From positions 66,144-130,143 of the forward strand of contig JAPPGX010000191.1 of NCBI GenBank assembly GCA_028877265.1: a stretch of DNA of 64,000 bases. The letters are read 5' to 3'. Each line of letters opens with the position of its first letter. Position 1 is the stretch's first letter. Positions 14,702-52,071 of the stretch are shown in pieces. The position numbers and the translations under genes were made by a program. The notes beneath the pieces are model-generated. The model saw nothing but the letters and a program-made list of their open reading frames with translations, was not told the origin of the DNA and searched no databases. The stretch comes from Acidobacteriota bacterium (GTDB lineage Bacteria > Acidobacteriota > Vicinamibacteria > Marinacidobacterales > Marinacidobacteraceae).

Positions 14702-14753
14702 ACGCCATGAGGCTGATCGATCGAGCGCACCTCCCGGGAGACCGGGACCGCTG

Positions 14754-15857: not shown

Positions 15858-15864
15858 GGGCGAC

Positions 15865-18266: not shown

Positions 18267-18309
18267 CCTTGACGGCACTGTCGTTCCTTCCTATCCTGCT
18301 CGCACGAAG

Positions 18310-18462: not shown

Positions 18463-18478
18463 CCACGAGTTGTCGGCC

Positions 18479-28982: not shown

Positions 28983-29057
28983 CTCGTCTGGGCGGGAGAG
29001 GCTATACGGGTTCGGCGTCAGGGTTCTGTCGCAAGAGAGGACCCGGACGAATGTTCA

Positions 29058-29726: not shown

Positions 29727-29921
29727 CGGTGCCGGGAATCGTTACTCAGTCTGCGTCTCGGTGACCGAAGGCCAGTGTGCAAAGAGTTGGAGTCGCCCGA
29801 TCCAATGGTCCGAATCCTCGGTCGGAACCACCGGCAGGAGTGGGTTCCAGTGGATCATCATGGAAATGTTTTTCAATGACTTGAGATCGTAACGGAGCCT
29901 TGCTGAAGCTCCGAGAACAGG

Positions 29922-29948
29922 GCATAAAATTTGCATATATGCATAAAA
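29922..29948. promoter_or_regulatory. Candidate operator/promoter core in an AT-rich divergent intergenic island: a 12-bp perfect palindrome flanked by direct repeats
   Basis: The site reads GCATAAAAtttGCATATATGCATAAAA. The palindrome TGCATATATGCA lies at 29932-29943, and the direct repeat GCATAAAA lies at 29922-29929 and 29941-29948. It sits between divergent starts at 29726 (-) and 30197 (+). Confidence 0.4.
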
Positions 29949-30196
29949 GTCACGAGATTCGCGTGGCCTGAACGGGAGTTCCAGAAGTTCCCGGAACGCC
30001 GCGTGGCGGGCGGTGTTCCATGGGGTGTTGACGGGCTTCGGATTTCGCTATCCGTCTACCTGGCTTCAGGAACGGAACCCGTCCCCCGGAATAAAACCGC
30101 TCGTTAGGGAAGACGCCCTTGTTCGGCGTCCCGAGTCCGGGAAAGCCTTGTCAGTTTCCAGCAGTTCTTCTGTTTCTCGAAGGGAGGAGGCGAACG

Positions 30197-33067: not shown

Positions 33068-33206
33068 CGTTCTCGTCGATGCGGAGCGCTGGAGCCTGCC
33101 AGCCAGCGCTCCGCTCAAGCGCCCCCGACCCATCGGGGCGCGTATGATGGAGATTCGGCCGGCCGCGAACCTTGCGGATCGGCCTTCAGGCAAGGGAGAC
33201 GGACGG

Positions 33207-34916
33207 ATGAACAGAAAACGACTTTTTCTGACCATGGCGAGTGCGGGGTTGGGACTCGCGCTGCTGCTCGGACCGGTGCTCCATGAGCCCGCCGAAGGCG
33301 GCGGGATGAGCGTCAACGGGATGGTGGTGACTTCTCATCCGCTCGCCGCCCAGGCCGGGCTCCGGATGCTCCAGGCCGGCGGGAACGCCTTTGACGCGGC
33401 GGTGGCGAGCGCGGCCGTGAAGGCGGTCGTGGAACCCCTCATGTCCGGCCTCGGTGGCGTGGGCGGCTACGCGCTGATCCATGACGCCGAAAAGGGGGAG
33501 ATCCGGTCGGTGGACTTCATCGGTGCCGCGCCCGCAGCGGCCGAACCCGAGGCCTTCACTGCGGGCAGCCGTCTCTGGGACCGGACCCATCCCGCCCGCG
33601 ACAGCTTCCTGGCGCCGCTCGTTCCCGGAAATCTCGCTGGCTGGGCGGCGCTGCTCGAGGAATACGGCTCCATGTCCTGGGCGGAGGTCCTGGCTCCGGC
33701 GATCGAGTACGCCGAGGGTGGCTTCGCGGTGTCCCCGGCGGTTCACGGTCCATTCGGAAGCAGCGGTTTCGGCGCCGATGTCGCCCGCTATCCCTACGGC
33801 GCCAGCATCTTCTTCAAGGACGGGAAGCCTTGGCCCGTGGGCGAGGTCTTGAAGCAACCCGATCTGGCCAAGACCTTCAAGGCCATCGCCGCCGACGGGC
33901 CGGGGGCCTTTTATGGCGGGCCGATCGCGGAATCCGTCGTGAACTTCTTCCAGCAGAACGGGGGCATCCTCACCGTTGAGGACTTCGCGAACTACCGGGC
34001 GCGGTGGAGCGAGCCGCTCTCGACCACCTACCGCGGCTACACGGTGTACAGCAACCCCCCCGGCGGCTCGGGGATGACGATCCTGCAGACCCTGAACATC
34101 CTGGAGCAGTTCGACGTGCCGGCGCTCGAGCACAACTCCGAGGAGTTCGTCCATCTGGTTGCGGAAGCGATGAAGCTGGCCTTCGTGGACGAGGACACCT
34201 GGAACACCGGCAAGGACTACGCCGACATTCCGCTCGACCGGCTGCTCTCGAAGGAGTATGCGGAGCAGCAGGCGGCTCGGATCGATCTCTCCCGGGCACA
34301 GTTCCATGCGGCGGTCCGTCCCGAGAGCGACGCTCCCACCGCGGTGGAGCACACCACGCACCACACCGTGGTGGACAAGGACCACAACGTGGTGACGATC
34401 ACCCAGACGCTGATGCTCCCCGCCGGGGTGGTGGTGCCCGAGACCGGGGTCATATTCAACAACGGCATGTCCTACTTCAGCCTCGATCCGGAGAGCGTGA
34501 ACCTGATCGAAGGCGGCCAGCGCCCGCGCTTCGTGATGAGCCCGACGATCGTGACCCGCTACGACAAACCCTATTTCGCGCTCGGGTCGGCGGGCGGCTG
34601 GACGATTCCCCAGACGATCCTGCAGGTGCTGGTGCGGGCCCTCGACTACGACATGGACGCGGCGGCGGCGGTGGATGCGCCGCGTTTCGTTGTCCGCTAC
34701 CTGGCGAACTCGATTCCCTACATGGATGGGACCGACCTCGTGCTGGAGAAGGATTTCTCGGACGAGGTCCGGGAGGCGCTGAACGCCAAGGGGCACCGCC
34801 TCCGTGAGCCTCCCAACCGGATCGGGATGCTGAACGCGATCAGGATCTTCCCTGGCTCGGGAGTACTGTCCGGGGGGCCTGACAAGCGCCGCGAGGGGGC
34901 CGCGGCAGGCTGGTAG
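33207..34916 (+). CDS. ggt: Gamma-glutamyltransferase
   Basis: Blocks are 'SHPLAAQAGLRMLQAGGNAFDAAVA', the autoprocessing/catalytic Thr region 'EHTTHHTVVDKDHNVVTITQT', and 'GSAGGWTIPQT'. I chose the ATG at 33207, which precedes a signal-like N terminus. Confidence 0.85.
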   Translation: MNRKRLFLTMASAGLGLALLLGPVLHEPAEGGGMSVNGMVVTSHPLAAQAGLRMLQAGGNAFDAAVASAAVKAVVEPLMSGLGGVGGYALIHDAEKGEIRSVDFIGAAPAAAEPEAFTAGSRLWDRTHPARDSFLAPLVPGNLAGWAALLEEYGSMSWAEVLAPAIEYAEGGFAVSPAVHGPFGSSGFGADVARYPYGASIFFKDGKPWPVGEVLKQPDLAKTFKAIAADGPGAFYGGPIAESVVNFFQQNGGILTVEDFANYRARWSEPLSTTYRGYTVYSNPPGGSGMTILQTLNILEQFDVPALEHNSEEFVHLVAEAMKLAFVDEDTWNTGKDYADIPLDRLLSKEYAEQQAARIDLSRAQFHAAVRPESDAPTAVEHTTHHTVVDKDHNVVTITQTLMLPAGVVVPETGVIFNNGMSYFSLDPESVNLIEGGQRPRFVMSPTIVTRYDKPYFALGSAGGWTIPQTILQVLVRALDYDMDAAAAVDAPRFVVRYLANSIPYMDGTDLVLEKDFSDEVREALNAKGHRLREPPNRIGMLNAIRIFPGSGVLSGGPDKRREGAAAGW

Positions 34917-35001
34917 CCGCCCGGGACCGCCGGCCTCTCTCGTTTCCGGACCCGCGTCCTCTGAAATAGACTCGGCTCATGGGGCTCGGCAGAATGTCCC
35001 G

Positions 35002-36531
35002 GTGGGCTTGAGGAATCGCGTTCTCCTGGCGGCGATCCTTCTTGGCGGGGGATTTGTGTTTCCGGCGGCGGGCGGTTGCGCCCTGCGGTCGGGAGGTTCC
35101 CCCGACCTGGCGCAGGAGGCGGCCCCCGAACTGCCCTCCGACTTTGCCGAGAATCCAGCCAGCGGAGCCCGCCAGGCGCAGGAGTGGTGGCGGGCGTTCG
35201 CCGATCCCGCGCTCGACCACGTGGTCGAATCGGTACTGGACTCCAATTTCTCCGTGGCGGAAGCGGTAGCGCGGGTCGAGCAGGCCCGAACGCGGGCCCG
35301 GCTGGCCGACGCGGCGATCCTGCCCACGGTCGGAGCGAGCCTCACCGCGGAAACCTTCGACCTGCCCACGAACGCCGCGATCGGCGCCCAACTCGAGGAC
35401 CTCGGTCTCGATTTCCCGCTGCCCGACCGGCTGGGCTTCCCGACCTATACCCTGGGCGCGGACTTTGCCTACGAAGCGGATTTCTGGGGCCGCGTCCGGC
35501 ACACCGCACTCGCGGCGGGATCCGAACTGCTGGCCTCGGAGTTCGACCTGCGGGTCGCCCGCATCGGCATCCTCGCCGAGACGATCTCGGCCTACTTCGA
35601 AATCGGCCATCTCCGGCAACAACTCGCCATCGCTCGAGGGCACGTGGAACTGCTCGAGGAACGCGAGCGGCTGGTCGAGAGCCGCTACGAACGTGGGCTT
35701 GCCGTCTCGCTCGAACTGCACGGCGTGCGTCAGGCTCTCTCGAGCGCCCGGGCCGGCGTGCCGCAGGTCGAGAATCAACTCGCCGAGACCGAGTCGCGGC
35801 TCGCCGTGCTGCTGGGAGGCTACCGGGAGGATGTCGCGGCGATCCTTCCCGAATCCCTCTCCCCGGAATCTCCAGCCGAACCGGTGCCCGCAGGCATTCC
35901 GGCCGACCTCCTTTCGCAGCGCCCGGACGTGCAGGCCGCGGGTCACCGGCTGGAAGCCGCCGGACACACCGTCGAAGCCCGTCGGGCCGCGTTGATGCCG
36001 CAGCTTTCGCTCTCCGGATCCATTGGACTCCGGAGTACGGACGCCGGAGGCCTCTTCGACGTCAAGCAGTGGTTCACGAACCTCGCCGGCAACCTCCTTC
36101 GTCCGGTGTTCGACGGCGGCCGGCTCGCGAGCGGCGTGGAACTGGCCGAGGCCCGCTTCGACGAGTTGGCGGCGGCCTACGGCCGGACCATCGTTACCGC
36201 GGTCAACGAGGTGGAAGCGGCCCTGGCCACCCTCAGGAACGAAGGCCGGCGGCAGGAATCTCTCGCCGCGCAGCACGAGGAGGCCCGCGCCTCCGTCGAA
36301 GCTCAGTCCAGGCGCTATGAGGCGGGCATCAGCGGCTATGGCGATCTGCTCGATGCGAATGCCAGACTGCTGGATGCGGAATCGGCGCTCGCGGGTTCGG
36401 CGCGGAACCTGGCGCTCGCCCGCCTCGCCATCCACCGGGCTCTGGGGGGCGCCTGGACCGCCCCGGACGAGATGGCCAGCGCGCCGGCGAGCACGCCGGA
36501 TGCCCGCGCCAAAGGACCGGCCGACCGATGA
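35002..36531 (+). CDS. RND efflux outer-membrane factor lipoprotein (NodT family)
   Basis: A lipobox is present in LLGGGFVFPAAGGC. 'WWRAFADPALDHVVESVLDSNFSVAEAVARVEQAR' is the typical NodT N-terminal repeat. The second repeat reads 'LLSQRPDVQAAGHRLEAA'. Confidence 0.85.
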   Translation: MGLRNRVLLAAILLGGGFVFPAAGGCALRSGGSPDLAQEAAPELPSDFAENPASGARQAQEWWRAFADPALDHVVESVLDSNFSVAEAVARVEQARTRARLADAAILPTVGASLTAETFDLPTNAAIGAQLEDLGLDFPLPDRLGFPTYTLGADFAYEADFWGRVRHTALAAGSELLASEFDLRVARIGILAETISAYFEIGHLRQQLAIARGHVELLEERERLVESRYERGLAVSLELHGVRQALSSARAGVPQVENQLAETESRLAVLLGGYREDVAAILPESLSPESPAEPVPAGIPADLLSQRPDVQAAGHRLEAAGHTVEARRAALMPQLSLSGSIGLRSTDAGGLFDVKQWFTNLAGNLLRPVFDGGRLASGVELAEARFDELAAAYGRTIVTAVNEVEAALATLRNEGRRQESLAAQHEEARASVEAQSRRYEAGISGYGDLLDANARLLDAESALAGSARNLALARLAIHRALGGAWTAPDEMASAPASTPDARAKGPADR

Positions 36532-37745
36532 ATCGAACGAAGGGATTCATCCTGGCGGCGATCATCCTGCTGGGATCGTTCGGGATCGCAACCCTGCTGA
36601 TCGCGCAGCGGCCGGAGCCCGAGCGGCGCGAACCTCCCTCCCGGATTCCGTTCGTCGTCACGGCGCCCGCGGTCGCGGGTTCGGGGCCGATCCCGGTCCA
36701 CGGCGCCGGGACGGTCCGGCCCCGCGTCCAGGTGGAGGTGGCCGCCGGGGTGAGTGGACGGGTCGTCCGGGTTGATCCGGGCTTCGAGAGCGGCGGCCGG
36801 GTCAGCGAGGGTCAGGCGCTCTTCCGCCTCGACGACGCCGACTACCGCTTCCGGGTGGAGCAGGCCCGTTCCGGCGTCGCCGTACAGCAGGTGGAACTGC
36901 TGAAGGTCGAGGAGGAAGCGCGGATCGCCCGCGAGCAGTACGAAGCGTTCCAGAGCCGCCGTGGCGCCGCCGGGGACGCGGAAGCGAGTCCCCTGGCGCA
37001 CTGGGAGCCGCAGCTCGAGGCGGCGCGGGCCGGTGTGGAACGGGCCCGCGCGCTCCTCGCGGAAGCCGAACTCCTGCTCGCGCGAACCGAAGTTCGGGCG
37101 CCCTTCGACGCCGTGGTGCGCTCCGAGAGCGTCGGGGTCGGACAGTTCGTGACCGCAGGGGTCGGCGTCGGCCGGATTTACGCCTCCGATGCGGTCGAGA
37201 TCGTCGTCCCGCTGTCCGACGCCGATGCGGCGCTCGTCCCGGGTCTGTGGGACCTGAGGCCGGGAGTCGCGGATCGTCGGGCGGCGGCCCGGGTCACCGC
37301 GGACTACGGGACCGGCGCCTATGCCTGGGACGGGTACGTGGACCGGGTCGAGGCCGCACTGGATGAAACGACGCGCACCCTCGATGTGATCGTGCGCGTT
37401 CCGAACCCCTTCACGGGTGGTTCCCGGGTGCAAGCGGGAGAAGCGAGCGCGGACGCCGGATCCGCGCCGCCGCTCCTGATCGGCCAGTTCGCGAACGTCG
37501 AGATATCGGGGATCGCGCCGGAGGAGTACTTCCGGATCCGGCGGCTGGGGCTCCGGCCGGGCAACGAGGTCTGGGCGGTGGACGGCGAGGCGGTGACCAT
37601 CGTTCCGGTCCGCGTGCTGCAGCGCTTCGACGACACCGTCTACGTCACCGGCGGGCTGCAGGAAGGCCAGGAGGTAGTCCTGAGTGGCATTCAGTTCGCG
37701 ACCGAGGGACTGAGGGTGCGGACCGCCGCGAACCCGGACCCTTGA
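36528..37745 (+). CDS. RND efflux periplasmic adaptor (membrane fusion protein)
   Basis: The start overlaps the OMF stop as ATGA. An N-terminal TM anchor is followed by 'VSEGQALFRLDDADYR', a coiled-coil hairpin, 'TEVRAPFDAVV', and a beta-barrel/MPD ending 'VVLSGIQ'. Confidence 0.8.
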   Translation: MNRTKGFILAAIILLGSFGIATLLIAQRPEPERREPPSRIPFVVTAPAVAGSGPIPVHGAGTVRPRVQVEVAAGVSGRVVRVDPGFESGGRVSEGQALFRLDDADYRFRVEQARSGVAVQQVELLKVEEEARIAREQYEAFQSRRGAAGDAEASPLAHWEPQLEAARAGVERARALLAEAELLLARTEVRAPFDAVVRSESVGVGQFVTAGVGVGRIYASDAVEIVVPLSDADAALVPGLWDLRPGVADRRAAARVTADYGTGAYAWDGYVDRVEAALDETTRTLDVIVRVPNPFTGGSRVQAGEASADAGSAPPLLIGQFANVEISGIAPEEYFRIRRLGLRPGNEVWAVDGEAVTIVPVRVLQRFDDTVYVTGGLQEGQEVVLSGIQFATEGLRVRTAANPDP

Positions 37746-37854
37746 ACCTGCGGGACGTTGTAAGGCCCGGAGCGCAGGTCGATCGCCCGCAGTCGGATCC
37801 GCCGGGGTGGGGCGGAGGAGGAAGGACCTTGGGCGAGAATGCCGGTCAGGACGC

Positions 37855-38850
37855 ATGAGTGAAGACGTGCTCTCCCCGTTCCCGGAGGGTTGGTATTTCG
37901 TTACCACCCGGGGATCACTGGAGAAGGCGAGGCTCATCCAGAAGACCTGGATGGGAAAGGACATCGTCGTCTGGTGCGACGACGCCGGCGGAATCTCCGT
38001 GGCCGAGTCGGTCTGTCCTCACCTGGGGTCCGAACTGGGCCCCGCCGCCGGCGGCCGAGTGCGGGATGGCCGTCTCGTGTGTCCTTTTCACGGCTACGAG
38101 TTCGACGTCAGCGGGCAATGCGTCGCCACGCCCTTCGCCCCGCCGCCGAAGACCGCGAGGCTGAGGTCGTTCGAGACTCGGGAGGTCCTGGGCATCGTCT
38201 TCGCCTGGTGGGGAATCGACGGACGGCCCCCGCAGTGGAGCCTTCCCGAGGACCCGCCGGCCGGCGCCGACTGGTGCGAACCGGCGTTCCGGACTCTCCG
38301 GTTTCGGGGGCACCCCCAGGAAACGAGCGAGAACGCCGTGGACATGGCGCACCTCCGGTACGTGCACGGCTACGGCAACGTCGGCCGGGTCGGCAAGGTA
38401 ACGGTGGACGGCGCGTATCTGCGGAGCTGCTTTGATTTCAAGCGCACCCAGCGCATCGCCGGAGCCATCAATCTCACCTTCGACGTCTCCGCCACCGCGC
38501 ATGTCGTCGGACTCGGATACTCGCTCGTGGAGTTCCACGAGCGCTCCATTGGAATGGACGGACGCCTCTGGGTCCTTGCGACGCCCGTCGACGGCACGCT
38601 CATCGACCTGGTGCTGGTCGGACAGTTGCGAAGAATCCGGAAACCGAAGCGGCTGATCGTCGGGTTGCGGTTCCTGCCGCCTGCTCTCCGTACCGGGACC
38701 ATGAACAAGCTGATGCTGTTCTTCCAAAGGCACGACGTCATGCAGGACGTGGAGATCTGGAGCCGGAAGCGGTACCGGTCGCGCCCGAGCCTCAGCCGGG
38801 CCGACGGCGAGATCGGGTTGTACCGGCGCTACTGCAGGCAGTTCTACTAG
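37855..38850 (+). CDS. Rieske [2Fe-2S] non-heme-iron oxygenase (KshA / Neverland-like architecture)
   Basis: The Rieske motif is 'CPHLGSELG...(x19)...CPFHGYEF'. The mononuclear iron motif E-x3-D-x2-H-x4-H lies in 'ENAVDMAHLRYVHG'. The N terminus 'GWYFV' is typical for this class. I chose the ATG at 37855. Confidence 0.8.
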   Translation: MSEDVLSPFPEGWYFVTTRGSLEKARLIQKTWMGKDIVVWCDDAGGISVAESVCPHLGSELGPAAGGRVRDGRLVCPFHGYEFDVSGQCVATPFAPPPKTARLRSFETREVLGIVFAWWGIDGRPPQWSLPEDPPAGADWCEPAFRTLRFRGHPQETSENAVDMAHLRYVHGYGNVGRVGKVTVDGAYLRSCFDFKRTQRIAGAINLTFDVSATAHVVGLGYSLVEFHERSIGMDGRLWVLATPVDGTLIDLVLVGQLRRIRKPKRLIVGLRFLPPALRTGTMNKLMLFFQRHDVMQDVEIWSRKRYRSRPSLSRADGEIGLYRRYCRQFY

Positions 38851-38872
38851 CGCGGCCAGGCGCCCGCCTGGC

Positions 38873-40252
38873 TCAGGCGCTCCGGAACCGCCAGCCGTAC
38901 ATCACCCGGCCGTAGAAGTTGAACCACTTTCTGGCCTCCGGGTCCTCGAACGGATAGTCCGCGCCGAGCTGTCTCGCCGTGACGAGGCCGGACACGAAAC
39001 AGGTCTCCTGGCTGTTGACCAGGGTGTGCGCGCCACAGTGCCAACTCCGCCGCTTTCCCTGGACGAAGCGAAACAACTGGGTCAGGAAGGCGACGTGAGG
39101 CACGTCGTGCACGATGTGCTGAAACCACCACCTCTTGACGATCCTGCTCTCGTCGATACGGCTGATCGGGTTGTAGGTCACGAGACACGGCTTGTCCGAC
39201 GTGTTCGCCCAGGGCTGCTGGTTGTGCATGATGTAGGTGATCTCGTAGTTGTCGGGCCGCGCGCCGTACTGCTCGATGTGGTTGCTCCGGGTGGCGAGCG
39301 GCCTGGCCTCGTTGTCGGGGAGGACCGAGGCGTCCGAATGCACGACCGTGTGGTTGTGCAGTTCGCTTTCGTACCGGATCGAGGAGAGGAGCCAACCCTC
39401 CAGCCGCGTCGGCCTGTCGAGGAGCATCAGCGTCTGGTTCGCGTTGCACGCGAAGACGACTTCGTCGAAGGTTTCGGTCCTTCCGTCCTCGTCCTCCACG
39501 ACAACCTCGTTACGGCGCCGGTGGACCCTTCGCACCGGCCGGTTCAGATAGATCTTCTCGCGAAAGGCTGCGGACAGATCCCGGTAGATCCGCCGGGTGC
39601 CCTGATCCCAGGTCTGCATCGGCGTCGCGGTCTCGATGTCGAAGAAGTCCAGGTACCGCGAAAAGAGCGACGCCGGCATGTCGAACACGTTCGTCGCCAT
39701 CAGGAAGTTGACGAACATGGGCTTCAGGACCTTGTACCGGAAGTCCCCCGAGTACCTTCCCAGGTTCAGCAGCGCTCCCATGCTGACGTAGTTGAACGGG
39801 TTAAGGGAGCTGAGCAGCTTCGACCTCGAGACGTTGAGCCGGCCGAACCACTTCAGACGTCTCAGGAGACGCTGGAACTTCTGGATTTCCGGTTGCAGTT
39901 GCCTCCTGATGTCGGAGTCGAAGTCGTGGGCATAGATTCCGCCTCGATACTTCACGCTGTAGTTGAACCGCGTTTCGAGCAGCTCGATGCCGTGCTGTTG
40001 CATGAGCAGGACGAAGTGGTGGTATGCCGACGGTATGCACGCGGTGACCGAGATATCGAACGGCACCGTGCTGCCGTCGTCCTGCGGCATGTCCGCAGTG
40101 ATCGCATTGCCGCCGAGCTGCGCCTGCGCTTCGAAGAGCCGAAAATCGAAACGGTCCCGGTGGCGGTTGAGCGCCCACGCCGTCCCGAGCCCCGAGGCGC
40201 CCCCACCGACAATGGCAACCCTTCTCGGCGCGCCGCCCTTCGCTTCACCCAC
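38873..40252 (-). CDS. Rossmann-fold NAD(P)/FAD-dependent oxidoreductase (amine-oxidase/COG2907-like)
   Basis: The N-terminal dinucleotide motif is 'RVAIVGGGASGLGTAWAL...LFEAQAQLGGN'. The protein is 459 aa. The C-terminal 'WHCGAHTLVNSQETCFVSG' resembles the COG2907 tail. Confidence 0.7.
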   Translation of the reverse strand: MGEAKGGAPRRVAIVGGGASGLGTAWALNRHRDRFDFRLFEAQAQLGGNAITADMPQDDGSTVPFDISVTACIPSAYHHFVLLMQQHGIELLETRFNYSVKYRGGIYAHDFDSDIRRQLQPEIQKFQRLLRRLKWFGRLNVSRSKLLSSLNPFNYVSMGALLNLGRYSGDFRYKVLKPMFVNFLMATNVFDMPASLFSRYLDFFDIETATPMQTWDQGTRRIYRDLSAAFREKIYLNRPVRRVHRRRNEVVVEDEDGRTETFDEVVFACNANQTLMLLDRPTRLEGWLLSSIRYESELHNHTVVHSDASVLPDNEARPLATRSNHIEQYGARPDNYEITYIMHNQQPWANTSDKPCLVTYNPISRIDESRIVKRWWFQHIVHDVPHVAFLTQLFRFVQGKRRSWHCGAHTLVNSQETCFVSGLVTARQLGADYPFEDPEARKWFNFYGRVMYGWRFRSA

Positions 40253-40431
40253 ATTCCTACTCTACCTTTGGGGTGCGGCCGCCCCGTCCGCTCGCCGCCG
40301 CCGCAGTAGGCGGTCCGGGGACCCTGCCGACCCCTTGCCCGCCCGCTCCATCGACTAGACTCTGACCCGGACCATCCAGTGGCGGCGGATCGGTGGGGCT
40401 GTCGAGCCGCCTCGGCTGGAGGTTGAGCACC

Positions 40432-42450
40432 ATGAGCGAGGGCACCCGGTTTCCGATCCGAATCGCCGAGGAGTTGATCCTCCTCATGCTGGACGAGCAG
40501 AGCGGCTACCTCGAGATGGTTCCGAACTGGGACTTCTCCTGTGTCATGGCCGGGGCCGTGCTCGCCGACCTGGCCCTGGAGCGTCGCATCGAGACCGACC
40601 TGGAGCGGTTGTACCTGGTCGATCCCTCACCGACCGGAGATGAGTTGCTCGACCCGACGCTCAAGGACATCGCCGAATCCGACGAAAAATCGGACGCCCA
40701 GTTCTGGATCGAACGGAACACCCGCCAAGCCGACGAAATCGTCGCAGCCGCCCTCGAGCGCCTGGTGGAGCGGAACATCCTTACCCACGAGAGCGGCGGA
40801 TTCTGGGGGCTCTCGCGCTCTGTCGCCCGTTCAGGGACTTTTCCGACCCAGGCTGTCGCGACCCGCCGGGAATCCAAGGTGAGGGTCCTGAGCGTCATCC
40901 TGAACGACGAGATCCCGGACCCGCGGGACGCCATCCTGGTCGCGCTGATGCACACCTGCGGCGGCTTCAAGCTGCTGCTGGAGGAAGAGGACTACGAAGA
41001 GCGGCTCGCCCGCATCGAACTCGTCGCCAAGCTGGACCTCATCGGACGGACGGTCGCCGCCGCCGTGAAGGACAGCACGGCGAGGCCCAAGACCCGTCGC
41101 GTCGTTCAGACGAAGCCCATTCCCAAGCCTGGGTATCTCGTACTGCTACAGCGCGACTTCCTCTCCGGCAACATCTCGAAGGCGATGTACGGCATGTATC
41201 GAAAACACGGGCCGGTCGTCAGGATGCCCTTCAAGATCCGCGGCAAGCCCGTCGTTTCGTTGATGGGTGCCGATGTCAATCACTGGGTCAATCGGCACGG
41301 ACGGTTCTATCTCCGCTCGAAGGACTACATCGAAGGGCTGGAGCACGCGTTTGGCGCATCCCGGAGTCTCCCCGGAATGGATGGCGCCGAACACTATCGA
41401 ATGCGCAGGGAACTCCAGACTGCGTATTCCCGCGCCACGCTCGCGCAGCGGCTGCCGGAGCTGATCGACGACTGCCGGAAATCGCTGAGCCGTTGGAAGG
41501 AAGGGGATGTCTTCCGCGCCACCGAGAGCTTTCAGAACCACATCAGCAGTCAGATCTCCAATTTCGCGATGGGAGTGGATTGCAGCCACTATGTCGACGA
41601 ACTGTTGGCCTTTGAACACCGTGCACTGATAACGCGGGTCCAGGGCGCATTGCCGGATTTCATGCTGTCCACCCCAAGAATGAAACGGTATGGGAAGCGT
41701 GTCAGGGAACTCCAGGAGGCGATCACCGCGGGACACACGACGGCGCTGCGCAAGGGAAAGCCCCGGGATCTGGCCGACGCGATTCTCGATCTCCACAAGA
41801 GGGACCCGCAGTTCCTTCCCGAAACGGACCTCACCTTTCCCTTCGTGGCTTCCATGGTTGCGAGCATCTATCTCGGCAGCGGACTGGCCTTCACTGTTTA
41901 CAACATGGTTCGAAACCCGGACGTGTACGCGAGGGTCCGGAGCGAGGCCGAGTCGCTGTTCGGCAACGGTCGTGAACTTGCGGGAGATGACTTCAATCAC
42001 CAGAGCATCGACGTCACGGTGCGTCTCTGCATGGAATCCTCGCGTATGTACCCGGTGATTCCATGGCAGTTGAGAACGGTCATGAACGAGTGCATCGTCA
42101 GTGGTTACGAGATACCGCCGAAGACGATGTTGCTGATTTGCCAGACTGCGCCGCACTATGCCGAGGATCTGTACCGGGATCCGTTGAAGTTCGATATCGA
42201 TCGGTACTTGCCGGACCGGGCCGAGCATCTGCAACCGGGCGCCTATGCGCCCTACGGCCTGGGTACGCACATGTGCCTCGGCCACCGGTGGGTGGAACTT
42301 CAGATGGCCGTCAACGTCCTGCTCATCGCGCATCACCTGCAGCTCGAAGTGGTGCCCGGCAACTACAAGATGGGAATCAATCCGTTCCCGACCTTGGCCC
42401 CCAACAGGAAGCTGAAGTTCCGCGTCGCCGGGGTCCCGCGTCCCGTGTGA
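40432..42450 (+). CDS. Fusion protein: an N-terminal GPP34/GOLPH3-like domain joined to a C-terminal cytochrome P450
   Basis: GGAGG lies 10 nt upstream of the ATG at 40432. GPP34 blocks are 'IAEELILLMLDEQSGYL', 'VMAGAVLADLALERRI' and 'PDPRDAILVALMHTCG'. P450 blocks are the ExxR 'ESSR' followed by 'MYP' and the heme-Cys loop 'YAPYGLGTHMCLGHRW'. Confidence 0.8.
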   Translation: MSEGTRFPIRIAEELILLMLDEQSGYLEMVPNWDFSCVMAGAVLADLALERRIETDLERLYLVDPSPTGDELLDPTLKDIAESDEKSDAQFWIERNTRQADEIVAAALERLVERNILTHESGGFWGLSRSVARSGTFPTQAVATRRESKVRVLSVILNDEIPDPRDAILVALMHTCGGFKLLLEEEDYEERLARIELVAKLDLIGRTVAAAVKDSTARPKTRRVVQTKPIPKPGYLVLLQRDFLSGNISKAMYGMYRKHGPVVRMPFKIRGKPVVSLMGADVNHWVNRHGRFYLRSKDYIEGLEHAFGASRSLPGMDGAEHYRMRRELQTAYSRATLAQRLPELIDDCRKSLSRWKEGDVFRATESFQNHISSQISNFAMGVDCSHYVDELLAFEHRALITRVQGALPDFMLSTPRMKRYGKRVRELQEAITAGHTTALRKGKPRDLADAILDLHKRDPQFLPETDLTFPFVASMVASIYLGSGLAFTVYNMVRNPDVYARVRSEAESLFGNGRELAGDDFNHQSIDVTVRLCMESSRMYPVIPWQLRTVMNECIVSGYEIPPKTMLLICQTAPHYAEDLYRDPLKFDIDRYLPDRAEHLQPGAYAPYGLGTHMCLGHRWVELQMAVNVLLIAHHLQLEVVPGNYKMGINPFPTLAPNRKLKFRVAGVPRPV

Positions 42451-42517
42451 CCGCGGGGGCGCGTAACGGCGCGGCCGACCCCGGAGTGTTTCTCAGGACT
42501 CGCTTCCACACGTATCG

Positions 42518-45500
42518 ATGAGTTCCGATCCAGGCAACCACGCGGAACCCCGTGGACCGATCGCCTACATGGCGAGCAACGGCGTGGCGTCCAACTTGCT
42601 GATGTTCGGCATCCTCGCGGTGGGCCTCGTGTCGCTGACCGGCCTCGAGCAGCAAGCGTGGCCCACGGTGCCTTTCAACCAGTTCGAGATCTCGGTGCCG
42701 TTCCCGGGCGCAACGCCCCAAGAGGTGGAGGAGGCCATCGTCGTCAAGATCGAGGATGAGGTCAGGGGATTGGCGGAGGTGAAGACGGTCCGGTCCGTAG
42801 CGGCCCCGGGAATGGCGTCCGTCAGGGTCGAAGTCAACTCCGGTACGGACATGGGCGCGAAGAGGGACGAAATCGAGTCGGCGGTCGCGCGGATTCAGAC
42901 CTTCCCGGGTGGGGCCGAGCGGCCCCAGATCCGTGAAATGACGAACGCCCAGAGCATGATGCGTCTCGTCCTCTACGGCGACGTTCCAGAGCGCTCGCTG
43001 AAGGAGCTCGCCCACCGGATCGAAGACGATCTCGCGTCGCTCCCGAACGTGTCCCTGGTCGAGACCAGCGGGGTGCGCAACTACGAGATCTCGATCGAAG
43101 TGCCGCTCGAGCGGCTGCGGGCCCTTGGGCTCACGCTGACCGACATCGCCAACACGGTTCGCCGCGGTTCCCTGGACCTGTCGGCGGGCAGCATCGATAC
43201 CGCGCAATCCCGGGTGCGGATTCGGACCCTCGGCCAGAGCTACGACCAGCAGGACTTCGAGGACATCGTCGTCCTCGGCCGCGCCGACGGCACGGTGGTG
43301 CGCCTGGGTGAGATTGCCGAGGTGCGCGACGGCTTCCACGACTCAGGTTTGCTGGTGCGGTACCAGGGCGAGCCAGCCGTGTTCGTCGAGGTTTCGCGAG
43401 CCGATGGCGAGAGGGTGATGGACGTGGCGCGCGCCGTTCGGGAACACGTCGCGAACGAGATAGCGCCCTCGCTCCCGGACGGCATGGGCATCGACATCTG
43501 GAACGACGACTCTTCGGTCTTCTCGGAACGTGCCCTCCTTCTCCTCAAGAATGGAGCCTTGGGGCTGTTGCTGGTCCTGATCGCGCTGGGTCTGTTTCTC
43601 CAGCTTCGGCTGGCGTTCTGGGTCGCCGTCGGCCTCGGCGTTTCCGCGATCGGCGCCCTGGCCGCCATGATGGTGTTCGACATCCCGCTCCACGAGATTT
43701 CGCTCTTCGCCTTCGTGCTCGCCATCGGCATCGTCGTGGACGATGCGATCGTCGTGTCGGAGCACATCCACGAGGAACGAAAGCGCGGCACGCCGGGACT
43801 CGCGGCGGCGATCCGGGGCGCGCGACGCATCAAGGTGCCGCTGGTCTTCGCGGTGCTGACGACCATCGTGGCGTTCCTTCCGCTGCTCTTCATACCCGCG
43901 GGGTTCGGAGAGGTGTGGAAGGCACTGCCGATCGTCGCTATTGCCACGCTGCTCTTTTCGCTGGTCGAATCGCTCCTGGTGCTGCCCAATCATCTGTCCC
44001 ATCATCTGCACGGCCCGGATTGGGCGCCCCGGACGGGCATGGAGCGGTTCGTCGCCCGGATCCAGAATCGGGTCGATTCCTGGTTGAACCGCTTCATCCA
44101 GGGACCCGTGGACCGCGGGATCCAGTTGGCGACGGACTGGCCCGGGGTGACGGTTTCGGCGGCCGTTGCGCTGCTCGTCCTGAGCATTTCCCTTCTTCCG
44201 GCCGGCATCGTTCCCACCACCTTCGCGACGAAGGTCGAAGGCGACTTCGCGATCGCCACCCTTGAGATGCCGGAAGGAACGACCGCGCCGCAAACGTACG
44301 CCGTGGCGCAACACCTGGAATCGGCCGGCCGCCGGGCCGTCGAGCGGCTCTCCCAAAGCCGGCCCGCTGACGCGCCTCCCCTCTTGTCCGGAGTTACGGT
44401 CGTCGTCGGCCAGCGGTCGCGGCTCGAAACCGGAGGCCTCAATCCCTCGCCCACTTTGAACCCGGAAGCCAATGTCGCGACCATCGAGTTCAAGCTCCTG
44501 AGCGCCCAGCTGCGGAGCATCACTTCGGGAGACGTCGTGCAGGCATGGCGCGAGGAGGTGGGTGTCCTGCCTCAGGTACGCGCGGTCACCTTCATCAGCG
44601 AGATCTACACATTGGGCAACCCCGTCGAGGCGGCGCTGTCCCACCCGGATCCGGAACGCCTCAACGAGATCGCGAATTCCACCGTCGCCGGCCTCGGCAG
44701 GGTCGGAGGCGTCTTCGACATACGCTCGGATCACACTCCCGGGATCCCGGAAGTCCAGGTGGGACTACTTCCCGAAGCGCGCACCCTGGGCCTCACGCTG
44801 GATGATCTTGCCCGGCAGACGCGAGCGGCCTTCTTCGGTGAGGAGGCCGTGCGGGTGCAGCGGGGACGTGACGAAGTTCGGGTCTACGTCCGGTTACCCG
44901 AGGAGCAACGGAACGCGATCACCGACGTCGAGAGTTACCGGCTCCGGACGCCAACTGGCGCCGACGTGCCGGTCAGCCGCGTGGCTTCGCTGAGTTCGGG
45001 CACCTCGCCGCCGGCCATCCGGCGCCAGGACGGCCAGCGGATTGTGACCGTTACCGCGGATGTCGATCCGAGTGTGACTTCCGCCGCGACCGCCAACGAC
45101 ATTCTGGAGAACACCATCCTGGCGGGGCTCATCGCGGAGAACCCGGAACTGACCTATACCTTCGGAGGGGAACAGCAACAACAGCTCGACTCCCTGGGCG
45201 GTCTCTATCGCGGATTCGTGATCGCGCTGCTCCTGATCTTCGCGCTGCTGGCCATTCCCCTGCGCTCCTACACGAAACCGTTCATTGTCATGGCCATCAT
45301 CCCGTTCGGGTTCGTCGGGGTGATCCTGGGTCACTGGATGCTGGGGGTCGCCGTGAGCGCGGAGTCCTTCGTCGGGATCTTCGGGTTGGCCGGCGTGGTC
45401 GTCAACGACTCCCTGGTGATGATCGATTTCACCGACCAGAAGCTCCGGGACGGCATCCCGGTGCGAACCGCGATCATCGAGGGCGCGAAGGGACGCTTCC

Positions 45501-45721
45501 GCCCGATCATGCTGACTTCCCTGACGACCTTCCTGGGTTTCACCCCCCTGATTCTCGAGGACGCGATTCAGGCGCAGTTCTTTGTTCCCTTCTCCGCCTC
45601 GATCGGTTGCGGCATTCTCTTCACCACGGTGATCATCATGTTTCTGGTGCCCGCGCTTTCCTCGATCCACCTGCGCCTTGGCTCGGCCCGGCAACAACTG
45701 GCCGCCGAGGGTTCCGGTTGA
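42518..45721 (+). CDS. RND efflux permease (AcrB/HAE-like inner-membrane transporter)
   Basis: The protein is 1067 aa. Blocks are 'ASNLLMFGILAVGLVSL', the TM4 block 'LAIGIVVDDAIVVSEHI', and the second half-repeat 'AGVVVNDSLVMIDF'. It lies 67 nt downstream of the P450 gene on the same strand. Confidence 0.85.
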   Translation: MSSDPGNHAEPRGPIAYMASNGVASNLLMFGILAVGLVSLTGLEQQAWPTVPFNQFEISVPFPGATPQEVEEAIVVKIEDEVRGLAEVKTVRSVAAPGMASVRVEVNSGTDMGAKRDEIESAVARIQTFPGGAERPQIREMTNAQSMMRLVLYGDVPERSLKELAHRIEDDLASLPNVSLVETSGVRNYEISIEVPLERLRALGLTLTDIANTVRRGSLDLSAGSIDTAQSRVRIRTLGQSYDQQDFEDIVVLGRADGTVVRLGEIAEVRDGFHDSGLLVRYQGEPAVFVEVSRADGERVMDVARAVREHVANEIAPSLPDGMGIDIWNDDSSVFSERALLLLKNGALGLLLVLIALGLFLQLRLAFWVAVGLGVSAIGALAAMMVFDIPLHEISLFAFVLAIGIVVDDAIVVSEHIHEERKRGTPGLAAAIRGARRIKVPLVFAVLTTIVAFLPLLFIPAGFGEVWKALPIVAIATLLFSLVESLLVLPNHLSHHLHGPDWAPRTGMERFVARIQNRVDSWLNRFIQGPVDRGIQLATDWPGVTVSAAVALLVLSISLLPAGIVPTTFATKVEGDFAIATLEMPEGTTAPQTYAVAQHLESAGRRAVERLSQSRPADAPPLLSGVTVVVGQRSRLETGGLNPSPTLNPEANVATIEFKLLSAQLRSITSGDVVQAWREEVGVLPQVRAVTFISEIYTLGNPVEAALSHPDPERLNEIANSTVAGLGRVGGVFDIRSDHTPGIPEVQVGLLPEARTLGLTLDDLARQTRAAFFGEEAVRVQRGRDEVRVYVRLPEEQRNAITDVESYRLRTPTGADVPVSRVASLSSGTSPPAIRRQDGQRIVTVTADVDPSVTSAATANDILENTILAGLIAENPELTYTFGGEQQQQLDSLGGLYRGFVIALLLIFALLAIPLRSYTKPFIVMAIIPFGFVGVILGHWMLGVAVSAESFVGIFGLAGVVVNDSLVMIDFTDQKLRDGIPVRTAIIEGAKGRFRPIMLTSLTTFLGFTPLILEDAIQAQFFVPFSASIGCGILFTTVIIMFLVPALSSIHLRLGSARQQLAAEGSG

Positions 45722-45758
45722 CGGGGCGGGCGGACGAAGAGCCCGTCGGGGCGCCGGG

Positions 45759-46814
45759 CTAGCCCGAAAGGGGCCGGCGCGCCACGAAACAGTAGAGCGG
45801 GGTGAAGATCCCCGTCTTGCCCCCCGCGACGTAAGCGTCCGCGGTCCGGTCCAGGAGAGCCACCACCTCCGCCGAGCCCCTCGGGAACGCACCGAAGAAC
45901 TCGGCCAGCCGGACTCCCCACCGCAGCGCCTTGCGGCCCATCGGAATCCGGCGGAACGCGCTGCCGGGCAACCCGCGGAGGGTTTCCATGGGCTGATACC
46001 ACGGCGTGTCCTGACGGTGCCCGTCGGCGGCGAGGTCCTCACCCTCCAGGACTTCGAATCCTGCGGTTGCGAGCGCCCGGTTGACCTCCCCGAACGTCGC
46101 AATGTCCTTGAGCGCGATGCCGTGCATGAGCTCCTGCTTGATGGCGCGGTGCCGGTCGTCCCCCGGGTCGTACAGGTCCGTCATGCACATTTCCTGGCCC
46201 CAGAAGAGGGCTCCAGGTTTCAGCACTCGGTAGATCTCGGCGAACGCGCCCGCCTTGTCGTCCGCGTGGCAGGTTGATTCGATCGCGTAGCCGCGGTCGA
46301 AGGTCCGGTCCGCGATCGCGCTCATGTCCATGAAGCTGCACTGGAGACAGTCGGTCTGGCCGGCGAGCCCCGCGGCCTCGTTCAAGCGCCTTGCGTTGTT
46401 GCACTGGACTTCGCTGGCGTTGATTCCGACAACGCGGACTCCAACCTCCCTCGCCACGCGGCGCATCGGACCGCCGATCCCGCATCCGACATCCACGACG
46501 GTCATGCCCGGACGCAGTTCGAGCCTGGACATCATGAGTCTCTGGTGCCGGATCTTGGAGTCCTCCAGGCTTTCGCCGGGCGACAGCGGCGCAAAGTGCA
46601 GGGACTCTCCCCAACCCATGACCATGAACTCGGTGCAAAGGTCGTAGTACTCCTTGACGGTCCGCGTGTGGTCGTACCCCCCGTCGGCATCCCCCCGGGG
46701 GGATGCCCTGTCGGTCCATCCTTCGAAGTCCCGCACGCGGTTCGTGACGTTTGATCCGCCGAACGCAGTTCTCAACCCATCGGATAGCCCACGGATTTGT
46801 CCGGTGAACTTCAC
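45759..46814 (-). CDS. Sterol 24-C-methyltransferase (ERG6/SMT) family SAM-dependent methyltransferase
   Basis: Blocks, compared with ERG6/SMT1 from memory: 'EYYDLCTEFMVMGWGESLHFAP' (SMT region I, YEYGWGxSFHF); SAM motif 'VVDVGCGIGGP'; 'YAIESTCHA' (ERG6 YAIEATCHA); 'IYRVLKPGA'; 'PWYQPM'; and the C-terminal 'YVAGGKTGIFTPLYCFVARRP' (ERG6 LVAGGKSKLFTPMMLFVARKP). The start at 46814 is GTG. Confidence 0.85.
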   Translation of the reverse strand: MKFTGQIRGLSDGLRTAFGGSNVTNRVRDFEGWTDRASPRGDADGGYDHTRTVKEYYDLCTEFMVMGWGESLHFAPLSPGESLEDSKIRHQRLMMSRLELRPGMTVVDVGCGIGGPMRRVAREVGVRVVGINASEVQCNNARRLNEAAGLAGQTDCLQCSFMDMSAIADRTFDRGYAIESTCHADDKAGAFAEIYRVLKPGALFWGQEMCMTDLYDPGDDRHRAIKQELMHGIALKDIATFGEVNRALATAGFEVLEGEDLAADGHRQDTPWYQPMETLRGLPGSAFRRIPMGRKALRWGVRLAEFFGAFPRGSAEVVALLDRTADAYVAGGKTGIFTPLYCFVARRPLSG

Positions 46815-47147
46815 GGCGTGTTCTGGCCCGGTTCCGGCTCTCGCAGGCCACCCGGACGTGCGAAACCGGTTCTTCGCACCGGGGGCCGTTGAAGACGGGG
46901 CCCCGCGGGTCGCGGTTCCGCCAGCGGTCGCGGGGACGCACGGCGGATAGCCGCCACGTCAGCCGGCACCCGGACTTCCCTCCCCCCCAAGACAGTGGAT
47001 AGTCTAGTGGAGGCGTTGCGGACCCCGGGAGCACGCCGAAGGAGATGGACGGATGCGCAGGAAACGCCAACTCTCGCTGTTTCCGGCCGTATCCGGGGTG
47101 CTCTCTGGACGCCCGGACCACCGCCGCGAAGGAGCCGCTGCCGGTTG

Positions 47148-48851: not shown

Positions 48852-48911
48852 CCGGCGGTCGTCCGCCGTTCGGGCTGAGACTGCGGCTCCCCGGAGCGTC
48901 GGTTCCAGAGC

Positions 48912-50171: not shown

Positions 50172-50186
50172 TCCGGGGGAACGAAC

Positions 50187-52011: not shown

Positions 52012-52071
52012 CCCCCGCCACGGTAGCGCAGCGCCCGACGGATTCACCGAGCAGCCCCGTCCGCGCGCCGG

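Follow-up and report, generated by a model that had tools for sequence, protein, structure and literature searches.

Sterol gene clusters and the GPP34-P450 fusion of sponge symbionts

In symbionts of Ircinia that belong to 10 phyla, horizontally transferred ERG24-CYP51-LSS clusters have been described, many with an accompanying sterol methyltransferase (SMT) gene (Kelly et al. 2022, PMC9531527), and bacterial SMTs from sponge metagenomes are active in vitro (Brown et al. 2023, PMC10070321). In methanotrophs, bstA, which encodes an MMPL-family transporter, adjoins sdmAB and osc, and BstA binds sterols (PMC10942540). A fusion of a GPP34 domain with a cytochrome P450 (GPP34-P450, 'GPP34_L'), comprising 656 proteins, is reported to be exclusive to sponge symbionts and to be expressed in hospite; GPP34 genes, including the long forms, are expressed in Aplysina aerophoba metatranscriptomes, and GPP34_L has been proposed to be a secreted effector that binds phosphatidylinositol 4-phosphate (PI4P) and blocks phagosome maturation (PMC11706023). 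Here, a 64,000-nucleotide stretch of contig JAPPGX010000191.1 (assembly GCA_028877265.1) from an Acidobacteriota bacterium, hereafter the window, is analysed. It carries seven clustered genes for an outer membrane factor (OMF), a membrane fusion protein (MFP), a KshA-type Rieske oxygenase, an LkcE-like flavoprotein, a GPP34-P450 fusion, an RND (resistance-nodulation-division) superfamily permease and an SMT-family enzyme. Judged from its sequence, this cluster is one copy of a cassette that has spread horizontally among sponge-symbiont bacteria of at least eight phyla, plus at least one coral metagenome-assembled genome (MAG). The cassette probably modifies a sterol and moves the product out of the cytoplasmic membrane.

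Conservation and spread of the cassette

Two sets of loci, designated by L numbers, were compared with the window. For the SMT-anchored set, one genome per GTDB species was scanned and the best 80 of 582 relatives of the window SMT (67-85% identity) were taken; the window proteins were searched by tblastn in these loci, all open reading frames (ORFs) were clustered, and a gene was counted as present when it lay no more than 10 kb from the SMT gene. All 80 loci belong to MAGs, many of which have isolate names of sponge or coral symbiont bins (SB06xx_bin, APA_bin, RHO_bin, COS_bin, Plut). For the P450-anchored set, metagenome contigs were scanned with an alignment of 11 fusion proteins, yielding 80 loci, 34 of which are at least 15 kb long.

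The GPP34-P450 gene is present in 67 of the 80 SMT-anchored loci, the Rieske gene in 54 and the flavoprotein gene in 37, and an RND-superfamily transporter gene is found in 76 and directly adjoins the SMT gene in 68. These loci span Acidobacteriota, Gemmatimonadota, Gammaproteobacteria and Alphaproteobacteria, Chloroflexota, Dadabacteria, Thermodesulfobacteriota and Bacteroidota. Likewise, the longer P450-anchored loci contain the Rieske gene (28/34), an RND-superfamily transporter gene (26/34), the SMT gene (19/34) and the flavoprotein gene (13/34). Conservation in related genomes, on which the initial annotation had made its proposal of a module depend, is therefore borne out: SMT, GPP34-P450, Rieske oxygenase, flavoprotein and transporter genes occur together in most of the 80 loci over eight phyla, as they do on sponge contigs. 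All 80 metagenome matches of GPP34-P450 come from sponge metagenomes (Petrosia, Sarcotragus, Aplysina). The contig prefixes LXNJ and LXNI stand for Petrosia ficiformis and Sarcotragus foetidus, respectively, as in Brown et al. The prefixes MKWU, JGIcombinedJ30088 and Ga0209021 stand for A. aerophoba. The other Ga0209xxx prefixes are presumably of the same sample kind, namely sponge metagenomes.

The complete window order OMF-MFP-Rieske-flavoprotein-P450-RND-SMT recurs in L006, L007, L009 and L010 at 82-100% protein identity; the Porites lutea MAG L008 keeps this order, but its flavoprotein gene is diverged or partial. The window thus probably derives from a Vicinamibacterales-like symbiont. 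The closed long-read symbiont chromosome OZ220713.1 has all seven genes in this arrangement. Across phyla, the cassette proteins are 45-92% identical overall, with 67-85% for SMT, 82-92% for RND and at least 79% for the flavoprotein; the high values of these three suggest horizontal transfer under purifying selection. Single loci show duplications: L038, from Dehalococcoidia, has a second SMT-family gene (14420-15436, minus strand), and in L022, a Versatilivorator MAG, two GPP34-P450 genes (7462-9489 and 14838-16865) flank the SMT gene.

Contiguity with a sterol-synthesis core

The strongest argument that the cassette acts on sterols comes from L165 (MPMZ01000005.1, an A. aerophoba symbiont bin), where cassette genes bracket a complete de novo sterol core. 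The genes of L165 encode, in order, a flavoprotein (78% identical to that of the window), an MMPL protein (54% identical to the alphaproteobacterial type), SdmB-like and SdmA-like proteins, ERG24, a CYP51-like P450, a squalene epoxidase-cyclase fusion, a canonical SMT (FFEFGWGQSFHF, with Gly at position 225), a remnant of the KshA-type Rieske protein (94 aa, 64% identical), an SMT of the window clade (69% identical) and GPP34-P450 (44% identical). L152 carries a copy of this block, in which a clade SMT, again 69% identical, lies beside the canonical SMT and the cyclase. Thus, the cyclase that the initial annotation had noted as lacking from the window is present in relatives, flanked by cassette genes. 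A remnant of 94-99 aa, 64% identical to the C-terminus of the window Rieske protein, lies between two SMT genes in both L166 (7687-7986) and L165 (15013-15294), which suggests decay of a once complete cassette copy.

Among the P450-anchored loci, a squalene epoxidase-oxidosqualene cyclase fusion of 1,220 aa is found in two (L116 and L152). Such fusions, of 1,140-1,220 aa, are located at 15054-18716 (minus strand) in L152 and at 10001-13426 in L165; homologue clusters, as far as listed, show at least 72% identity, and Nitrospira, Acidimicrobiia and Rhodospirillales are among the few names that they carry. A single contig of 1,593,361 bp carries both a flavoprotein homologue and the fusion. No Vicinamibacterales chromosome is among the best 120 matches of the fusion, a result that says nothing about its absence from that group. 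Neither a squalene-hopene cyclase gene nor a carotenoid gene was found in the approximately 160 loci examined. The tetratricopeptide repeat protein beside the flavoprotein in L165 was considered as a BstC candidate and shows no detectable likeness to it.

The same block appears to be represented in a published cluster. In the A. aerophoba cluster JGIcombinedJ30088_10000835, genes 9 and 11 encode SMTs that are 35.16% and 42.36% identical to ERG6, respectively, gene 12 encodes an epoxidase-cyclase fusion, and genes 13-16 are ERG11, ERG24, sdmA and sdmB; in Supplementary Table 4 of the same paper, gene 11 is '1 of 2' and gene 9 is '2 of 2' (PMC10070321). The L165/L152 block shares this gene order, and there the cassette and the sterol cluster are contiguous. 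The canonical SMT of L152 has Gly225 and Phe at positions 81 and 83, matching the propylating 'Ap_sym_SMT' (Gly249, which is Gly225 in its own numbering), and the clade SMT of L152 is 36% identical to ERG6 and occupies the position of gene 9.

Exchange of the transporter at one position

The RND-superfamily transporter differs between phyla while its place beside the SMT gene is kept. An AcrB-type RND permease, 82-92% identical to that of the window, is found in 20 of 21 Acidobacteriota loci, 7/7 Gemmatimonadota loci, 3/3 Gammaproteobacteria loci and one Rhodothermales MAG, and its gene always converges on the SMT gene with a median gap of 36 nt. In 40 of the 43 Chloroflexota loci, a gene for an 827-aa MMPL protein lies directly upstream of the SMT gene on the same strand, with a median gap of 21 nt, and Alphaproteobacteria, Dadabacteria and Thermodesulfobacteriota have a second MMPL type; over the MMPL loci, the median gaps are 21-47 nt. 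Such a swap of transporter subfamilies at one position is hard to explain unless transport belongs to the function of the module.

This arrangement also bears on the idea that the pump is an ordinary multidrug efflux system into whose operon the enzyme genes were inserted by chance. The permease is of the AcrB type, its best solved relatives are drug pumps (236 bits), and the OMF and MFP pass generic efflux models. However, the permease falls far below the cut-off of every named multidrug pump model (396 bits against 1250), the RND-SMT adjacency persists at 82-92% identity in three or four phyla, and MMPL takes the same position elsewhere. A chance insertion is therefore highly improbable, in keeping with the initial view that pump and enzymes belong together.

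The OMF gene is present in 12 of the 21 Acidobacteriota loci, with 86-100% identity in loci of the Vicinamibacterales type, and in three Bryobacterales loci (L016, L018 and L020) the MFP gene directly adjoins that of the cassette RND. The cassette MMPLs are HAE3/HpnN-like. Assignment to named lipid transporters failed: the window RND scores 28-29 bits as HpnN (cut-offs 752 and 1100), and the cassette MMPLs score 63-108 bits as HpnN (cut-off 752) and 17 bits as BstA (cut-off 1400).

Other genes accompany the MMPL loci. Ten of the 43 Chloroflexota loci contain genes for a major facilitator superfamily (MFS) transporter and an LppX/LprAFG-type lipoprotein, resembling the mycobacterial P55/LprG lipid-export pair (L033, 12260-14487; L037, 12080-13543; L039, 3926-4702; also L097, L102, L103 and L142). 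An ORF of about 441-584 aa that has no Pfam match lies beside the second MMPL type in three loci of two phyla (L019, 18722-20047; L022, 3257-4828; L070, 5025-6779) and may encode an accessory component of this transporter.

The Rieske oxygenase and the flavoprotein

The Rieske protein has the cluster motif CPH...CPFH and the iron motif DMAHLRYVH, matches KshA_C over profile positions 2-207 of 207 (87 bits) and has KshA proteins as its best solved relatives (89 bits). Identity with SdmA, one of the functions that the initial annotation had listed for such oxygenases, is contradicted by a score of 37 bits against a cut-off of 600, confined to the Rieske domain, and by only 27% identity to the SdmA-like protein of L152, whose copy in L165 reaches 410 bits with the SdmA model. 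Neither the window cluster nor the conserved gene set includes a gene for a KshB-type partner reductase or a ferredoxin.

KshA-type oxygenases, like side-chain-hydroxylating P450s, typify steroid catabolism, host sterols surround the symbionts and the window itself is devoid of sterol-synthesis genes, all of which would suit a cassette for the uptake or degradation of host steroids, whether to gain carbon or to detoxify sponge sterols that act on membranes, with the pump expelling the products. Such a catabolic role appears quite improbable, however, since C-methylation is a biosynthetic step, the conserved set has no KstD, Hsa, beta-oxidation or Mce-type uptake genes, and the cassette of L165 is embedded in a biosynthetic cluster. 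In addition, proteins of the RND and MMPL types work as exporters.

Of the cassette proteins, the flavoprotein is the best conserved, with 79-99% identity in the best 120 homologue clusters listed, some of which bear source names that include Bacteroidetes, Gammaproteobacteria, Defluviicoccus, Rhodospirillaceae, Halieaceae and Acidobacteriota. Among solved structures, it is closest to LkcE (98 bits, full length) and next to a fatty-acid (double-bond) isomerase. Tuberculostearic-acid synthesis pairs a methyltransferase, which creates an exomethylene group, with an FAD oxidoreductase that reduces this group. By analogy, the flavoprotein would act as a side-chain reductase. Its AlphaFold model, based on 20 aligned sequences that are all at least 79% identical to the query, had a pLDDT of 42 and was not used.

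The GPP34-P450 fusion

The GPP34 domain of the fusion matches the full Pfam profile with 117 bits. The P450 domain has the cysteine-ligand loop YGLGTHMCLG and the ExxR motif (ESSR), both invariant in 11 orthologues. Its best solved relatives are CYP46A1 (cholesterol 24-hydroxylase, 77 bits), CYP170A1, CYP51 and CYP24A1. An assignment as CYP51 was rejected: the score to solved CYP51 structures is 68 bits, below that of CYP46A1, and L152 and L165 have a separate CYP51-like gene. The I-helix segment A-S-x-Y-L-G (A-S-I-Y-L in the window, at about 41830-41860, residues about 477-482) aligns with A-G-H-E-T of CYP46A1 at moderate alignment confidence, and its Ala, Ser, Tyr, Leu and Gly are invariant in 11 orthologues from five phyla. 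The altered I-helix means that the P450 may not be an ordinary oxygen-activating hydroxylase and hints at a non-standard P450 chemistry.

If GPP34-P450 were the proposed PI4P-binding effector, secreted to block the maturation of phagosomes in sponge cells, its neighbours would be functionally unrelated to it. The protein has no signal peptide, its fused haem-thiolate enzyme needs a cofactor and probably cytoplasmic redox partners, and in most loci it is adjoined by the genes for the Rieske oxygenase, SMT, flavoprotein and lipid-type transporters, with the sterol core adjoining it in L165. In a 25-bit alignment of the GPP34 domain with GOLPH3 (3KN1/9QPQ), too weak to be decisive, Arg90 aligns to Ala and Trp81 to Val, with a Trp two residues on; we take both GOLPH3 residues to belong to the PI4P pocket. 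The restriction of the known fusions to sponge symbionts and their expression in hospite (PMC11706023), the genuine GPP34 domain and the origin of all metagenome matches from sponge samples all favour an effector, but the paper that proposed it never mentions sterol, methyltransferase, RND or MMPL, and this interpretation of the fusion seems very improbable.

A divergent sterol methyltransferase clade

Homologues of the window SMT number over 2,000; identity is at least 68% throughout the best 120, with names that include Acidobacteria, Bryobacterales, Gemmatimonadota, Rhodospirillaceae and Chloroflexi. The clade is tight, with 67-96% identity across phyla. Among representatives at 50% identity, the next-nearest clusters are 52-54% identical and have in common a ...SLHFAPL signature, and most of the family is no more than 46% identical to the window SMT and has the canonical Region I motif.

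Residues were numbered by alignment to ERG6, and the numbering agrees with that of the Brown and Welander 2025 preprint (10.64898/2025.12.19.695621). Of 25 residues that functional SMTs have in common, the window SMT retains 24, among them the S-adenosylmethionine (SAM) site, His90 and Glu195, and departs from the set by F89L. The SAM-binding Region II (DxGxGxxGP), Glu195 of Region III and Gly217 of Region IV are all present, and Ile occupies position 249. Region I reads FMVMGWGESLHF in place of the canonical FYEYGWGSSFHF, amounting to the replacements Y81M, E82V, Y83M and F89L. Among 150 family representatives, the GWGxx-HF motif is present in 85, of which 79 have Phe89, and within the window clade Leu89 is invariant. 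These replacements indicate a systematically different side-chain pocket, which fits another substrate or another methylation site.

Proposed function of the cassette

A probable course of events can be drawn from these parts. The membrane-tethered GPP34-P450 and the KshA-type Rieske oxygenase would oxidise a sterol of the inner membrane, which may be made by the epoxidase-cyclase/CYP51/ERG24/SdmAB pathway where the genome has one or else be taken from the host. The oxidised sterol would then be processed by the LkcE-like flavoprotein and C-methylated by the divergent SMT, with its side-chain pocket unlike that of C-24 methyltransferases. The product would finally be removed by the RND-superfamily transporter, which in the window is a tripartite AcrB-type pump able to carry the product through the outer membrane. 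For bacteria classed as single-membrane, as well as for some others, this exporter would be of the MMPL type, and MMPL would do the equivalent job in Chloroflexota. An MFP and an OMF, as encoded in the window, allow the product to cross the outer membrane, and it would probably reach the cell surface or the sponge mesohyl. We infer that the substrate is a sterol, that the steps follow this order and that GPP34 serves as a tether to a membrane or lipid; a sterol substrate is supported by the best characterised relatives of the enzymes, which act on steroids (KshA; CYP46A1 and CYP51; Sterol_MT_C). Transport would be export and not import, given the direction established for RND and MMPL proteins and the bstA(MMPL)-sdmAB-osc precedent of methanotrophs. 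A module that modifies and moves a sterol-like lipid, as first proposed from the window, is thus supported by the conserved neighbourhood, the transporter swap and the sterol core in L165 and L152.

Several observations weigh against such a sterol-modifying and exporting cassette. The window has no sterol-synthesis gene, and the cluster encodes no redox partners for the P450 or the Rieske protein. The RND permease is of the AcrB type. Pumps of this type are best known for drug efflux. LkcE and the fatty-acid isomerase, the nearest solved relatives of the flavoprotein, are unrelated to sterols, and the usual acid-alcohol pair of the P450 I-helix (A/G-G-x-D/E-T) is replaced by Tyr-Leu. The window SMT deviates from the Region I motif (Y/F)E(Y/F/W)GWGxSFHF, and its clade does not have the F89 of GWGxxFHF, a sequence of Region I that is conserved in all functional SMTs (10.64898/2025.12.19.695621). 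Moreover, the A. aerophoba 10000835 '2 of 2', Chromatiales '2 of 2' and Nitrospira '2 of 2' SMTs were recorded as having 'No activity' on desmosterol and 24-methylenecholesterol (10.64898/2025.12.19.695621), and all three are probable members of the window clade. The A. aerophoba enzyme is placed there by gene order in L152/L165 and by its 35-36% identity to ERG6, and the Chromatiales and Nitrospira enzymes only by their percent identity to ERG6. Region I and III peptides of the clade were not found in the supplements of both Brown papers, in which the alignment figure consists of unreliable machine-read cells, and the tested '2 of 2' SMT is accordingly tied to the clade by gene order and percent identity, not by sequence. 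Look-ups of the JGI homologue clusters and contigs did not return the tested A. aerophoba gene identifiers. One SMT of the window clade has thus very probably been assayed already and found inactive on both compounds. The placement of the window protein among sterol methyltransferases in the initial annotation therefore holds for the family (Sterol_MT_C and the 24 of 25 residues) but needs qualification, in that the protein belongs to a divergent clade with a probable member inactive on both standard substrates.

There is the possibility, although an unlikely one, that a non-sterol isoprenoid or lipid (a squalene-type triterpene, a hopanoid, a carotenoid or an unusual fatty acyl chain) is methylated, oxidised and exported by the cassette. 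This would account for the inactivity of the probable clade member on desmosterol and 24-methylenecholesterol, for the replacement of residues 81, 82, 83 and 89, including the side-chain contact residue 81, and for the resemblance of the flavoprotein to LkcE and the fatty-acid isomerase; MMPL transporters, besides, move many kinds of lipid. SMT-like enzymes of Botryococcus, which methylate squalene and botryococcene, offer a precedent. However, the core flanked by the cassette genes is that of sterol synthesis and not that of hopanoid or carotenoid synthesis, in line with the outcome of the search for squalene-hopene cyclase and carotenoid genes given above. The Sterol_MT_C domain and nearly all residues of functional SMTs are retained, and, for both the Rieske protein and the P450, the best relatives are enzymes with activity on steroids.

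Within the reading of the cassette as a sterol module, a more specific and rather unlikely proposal is that the divergent SMTs, instead of being inactive C-24 enzymes, methylate another position or a pre-modified sterol, for instance C-26 of the codisterol-type products of the neighbouring canonical SMT, yielding aplysterol-type or 26-methyl sterols. Together with GPP34-P450, the Rieske oxygenase and the flavoprotein, they would then make 'sponge-specific' unconventional sterols that the RND or MMPL pump delivers to the host. If this were the case, bacteria would be a source of the sterane biomarkers that are now read as evidence of early animals, and GPP34-P450, a hallmark of sponge symbiosis, would be a sterol enzyme and not a phagocytosis effector.

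Three published lines meet in this cassette: the debate on bacterial SMTs and sponge biomarkers, the transferred sterol clusters of sponge microbiomes, and GPP34-P450 as a proposed symbiosis effector. If the proposed function is correct, the 'inactive' SMT clade gains a context, made up of substrate, exporter and partner enzymes, that can be tested, four or five candidate proteins for sterol tailoring and sterol transport, non-homologous to eukaryotic ones, come into view, and a protein of hundreds of symbiont genomes receives a metabolic alternative to the phagosome-evasion model. Symbionts of many phyla would hand modified sterols to their host, which bears on the question of which organisms produce the unconventional sterols of sponges and hence on the reading of Neoproterozoic steranes.

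Organisation of the window locus

The features of the locus are listed in Table 1. The seven genes have the coordinates and strands that were first annotated, a Pfam scan of all seven proteins bears out each domain identity, and the spacings agree as well: the MFP start codon (ATG at 36528) overlaps the OMF stop codon in an ATGA; 4,772 nt, filled by the three enzyme genes, with that of the flavoprotein on the opposite strand, separate the MFP stop from the RND start (about 4.8 kb); 67 nt lie between the P450 stop and the RND start (118 nt with the public gene call); and the stops of the convergent RND and SMT genes are 37 nt apart. The absence of a cyclase and a squalene epoxidase from the window was likewise confirmed by Pfam scans of the other large ORFs and by a six-frame scan for cyclase motifs. 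The P450 and RND genes, which the initial annotation regarded as probably co-transcribed, are co-oriented in the window, but this is not universal, the two genes being divergent in Gammaproteobacteria loci. Permease, adaptor and OMF of a tripartite RND system (HAE1 type) are all encoded on one strand and are not contiguous. Public gene calls of ENA contig ERZ23495471 (ROBB21-1_SAMN13943213, scaffold_1041) agree with the ORFs except for later starts of the Rieske, P450 and RND genes. This contig, the one record found with the exact SMT protein, has 63,465 bases as against 64,000 in the window, which therefore either belongs to a different assembly of this organism or reaches beyond the record.

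Table 1. Features of the seven-gene cluster and its neighbours in the window
Feature	Position	Strand	Evidence or remarks
OMF (NodT/TolC type) of tripartite pump	35002-36531	+	Pfam OEP 151 bits; NCBIfam TIGR01845 285 bits (cut-off 210)
MFP (periplasmic adaptor)	36528-37745	+	Pfam HlyD_3 51 bits; TIGR01730 152 bits (cut-off 95)
KshA-type Rieske non-haem-iron oxygenase	37807-38850 (ORF); public gene call starts at 37855	+	Pfam Rieske 58 bits, KshA_C 87 bits
FAD flavoprotein, amine-oxidase family, LkcE-like	38873-40252	-	Pfam Amino_oxidase 67 bits, NAD_binding_8; divergent from P450 gene
Divergent intergenic region between flavoprotein and GPP34-P450 genes, presumed promoters	40253-40431		179 nt
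GPP34-P450 fusion (GPP34_L)	40393-42450 (ORF); gene call starts at 40432	+	Pfam GPP34 117 bits, p450 124 bits
GPP34 domain of the fusion gene	about 40462-41070	+	
P450 domain of the fusion gene	about 41119-42384	+	
AcrB-type (HAE1-like) RND permease	42518-45721; public gene call starts at 42569	+	Pfam ACR_tran 512 bits, full length
Divergent SMT-family enzyme, Region I FMVMGWGESLHF	45759-46814	-	Sterol_MT_C 59 bits (cut-off 21.7); Methyltransf_11/25; CMAS
Esterase-like gene (divergent from SMT), MFS transporter, proline racemase	46995-51200	+	
Spondin_N-domain protein, eukaryote-like domain	51223-52047	-	136 bits; 4.4 kb from SMT

In all seven genes, the third-position GC content is 0.81-0.87 (68% GC for the window), and this codon-position pattern indicates that all seven are real. 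The GC content falls to 0.63-0.66 over about 28000-46000, a region comprising a TonB-dependent receptor gene, a gamma-glutamyltranspeptidase gene and the cassette, compared with 0.68-0.74 elsewhere in the window, and the third-position GC of the cassette genes is slightly lower than the 0.87-0.92 of others; both values fit acquisition by horizontal transfer. A promoter and terminator scan of 34.7-47.2 kb gave no promoters and 6 terminator-like sites against 7.1 expected, being uninformative for a genome of 68% GC, and the 179-nt intergenic region has no sigma-70-like match.

The flanking genes are ordinary, encoding TonB-dependent receptors, gamma-glutamyltranspeptidase, an esterase, an MFS transporter, proline racemase, SecA and IMPDH. 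Gene content beyond the cassette set varies with the phylum. For example, the block of esterase, MFS transporter and proline racemase genes lies beside the cassette only in loci of the Vicinamibacterales type, at 82-96% identity (the 82% esterase match being partial), and not in other phyla. Spondin_N genes recur beside the cassette in Acidobacteriota and Gammaproteobacteria loci (L007, 4850-5668; L027/L030; L082, 16590-17594; L083, 20-649), and in L082 a Big_1 plus Spond_N gene directly follows the GPP34-P450 gene.

Comparison with known systems

The cassette and the sterol clusters of sponge symbionts have in common their hosts, their phylum range, horizontal transfer, purifying selection and an SMT gene (PMC9531527, PMC10070321). 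However, the genes named in these two publications are confined to those of the cyclase, CYP51, ERG24, SdmAB and SMT and related ones, with no description of GPP34-P450, the KshA-type Rieske oxygenase, the LkcE-like flavoprotein or the RND/MMPL transporters, and the window cassette, unlike the published clusters, stands alone without the biosynthetic core. The fusion protein of the window is identical to GPP34_L in architecture, in its restriction to sponge symbionts and in its distribution over many phyla, with several copies of GPP34_L per genome; in the same work, only P450 is reported near short GPP34 genes, and links to sterol, methyltransferase, Rieske, RND, MMPL or efflux are absent (PMC11706023).

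The bstABC-sdmAB-osc locus of Methylococcus capsulatus likewise has an RND-superfamily (MMPL) gene beside sterol-tailoring genes, and the sterol is moved outward from the inner membrane (PMC10942540); in L165, too, MMPL adjoins sdmB. In contrast, the window has an AcrB-type tripartite pump, the cassette MMPLs are not orthologues of BstA, and no BstB or BstC homologue appears in the Pfam and NCBIfam annotations of the conserved neighbours, no dedicated search having been made. The KshAB/CYP125 steroid-catabolic clusters of Actinobacteria combine a KshA-family Rieske protein with a steroid-type P450, as the cassette does, but the cassette has no KshB reductase, KstD, Hsa or beta-oxidation genes and instead includes a methyltransferase and exporters, suggesting that its logic is biosynthetic. 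HpnN of the hpn clusters is a lipid-moving RND-superfamily protein encoded with triterpenoid-tailoring genes and in this respect resembles the cassette transporters; it differs in that these score far below the cut-offs of the HpnN models and no squalene-hopene cyclase gene is nearby.

Literature and full-text searches found no paper that describes the cassette as a unit. The statement of the initial annotation that no described system has this combination accordingly stands for the module as a whole, but the fusion protein and the SMT clade have each been published separately. What is known already is the family of every part, two of the parts individually, and the proximity of sterol-tailoring genes to an RND-superfamily transporter gene. 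As far as the literature shows, the cassette as a unit, its spread over at least eight sponge-symbiont phyla, the swapping of its transporter and its physical fusion with a sterol core are new, as is the reinterpretation of GPP34_L and the 'inactive' SMT clade that follows from them.

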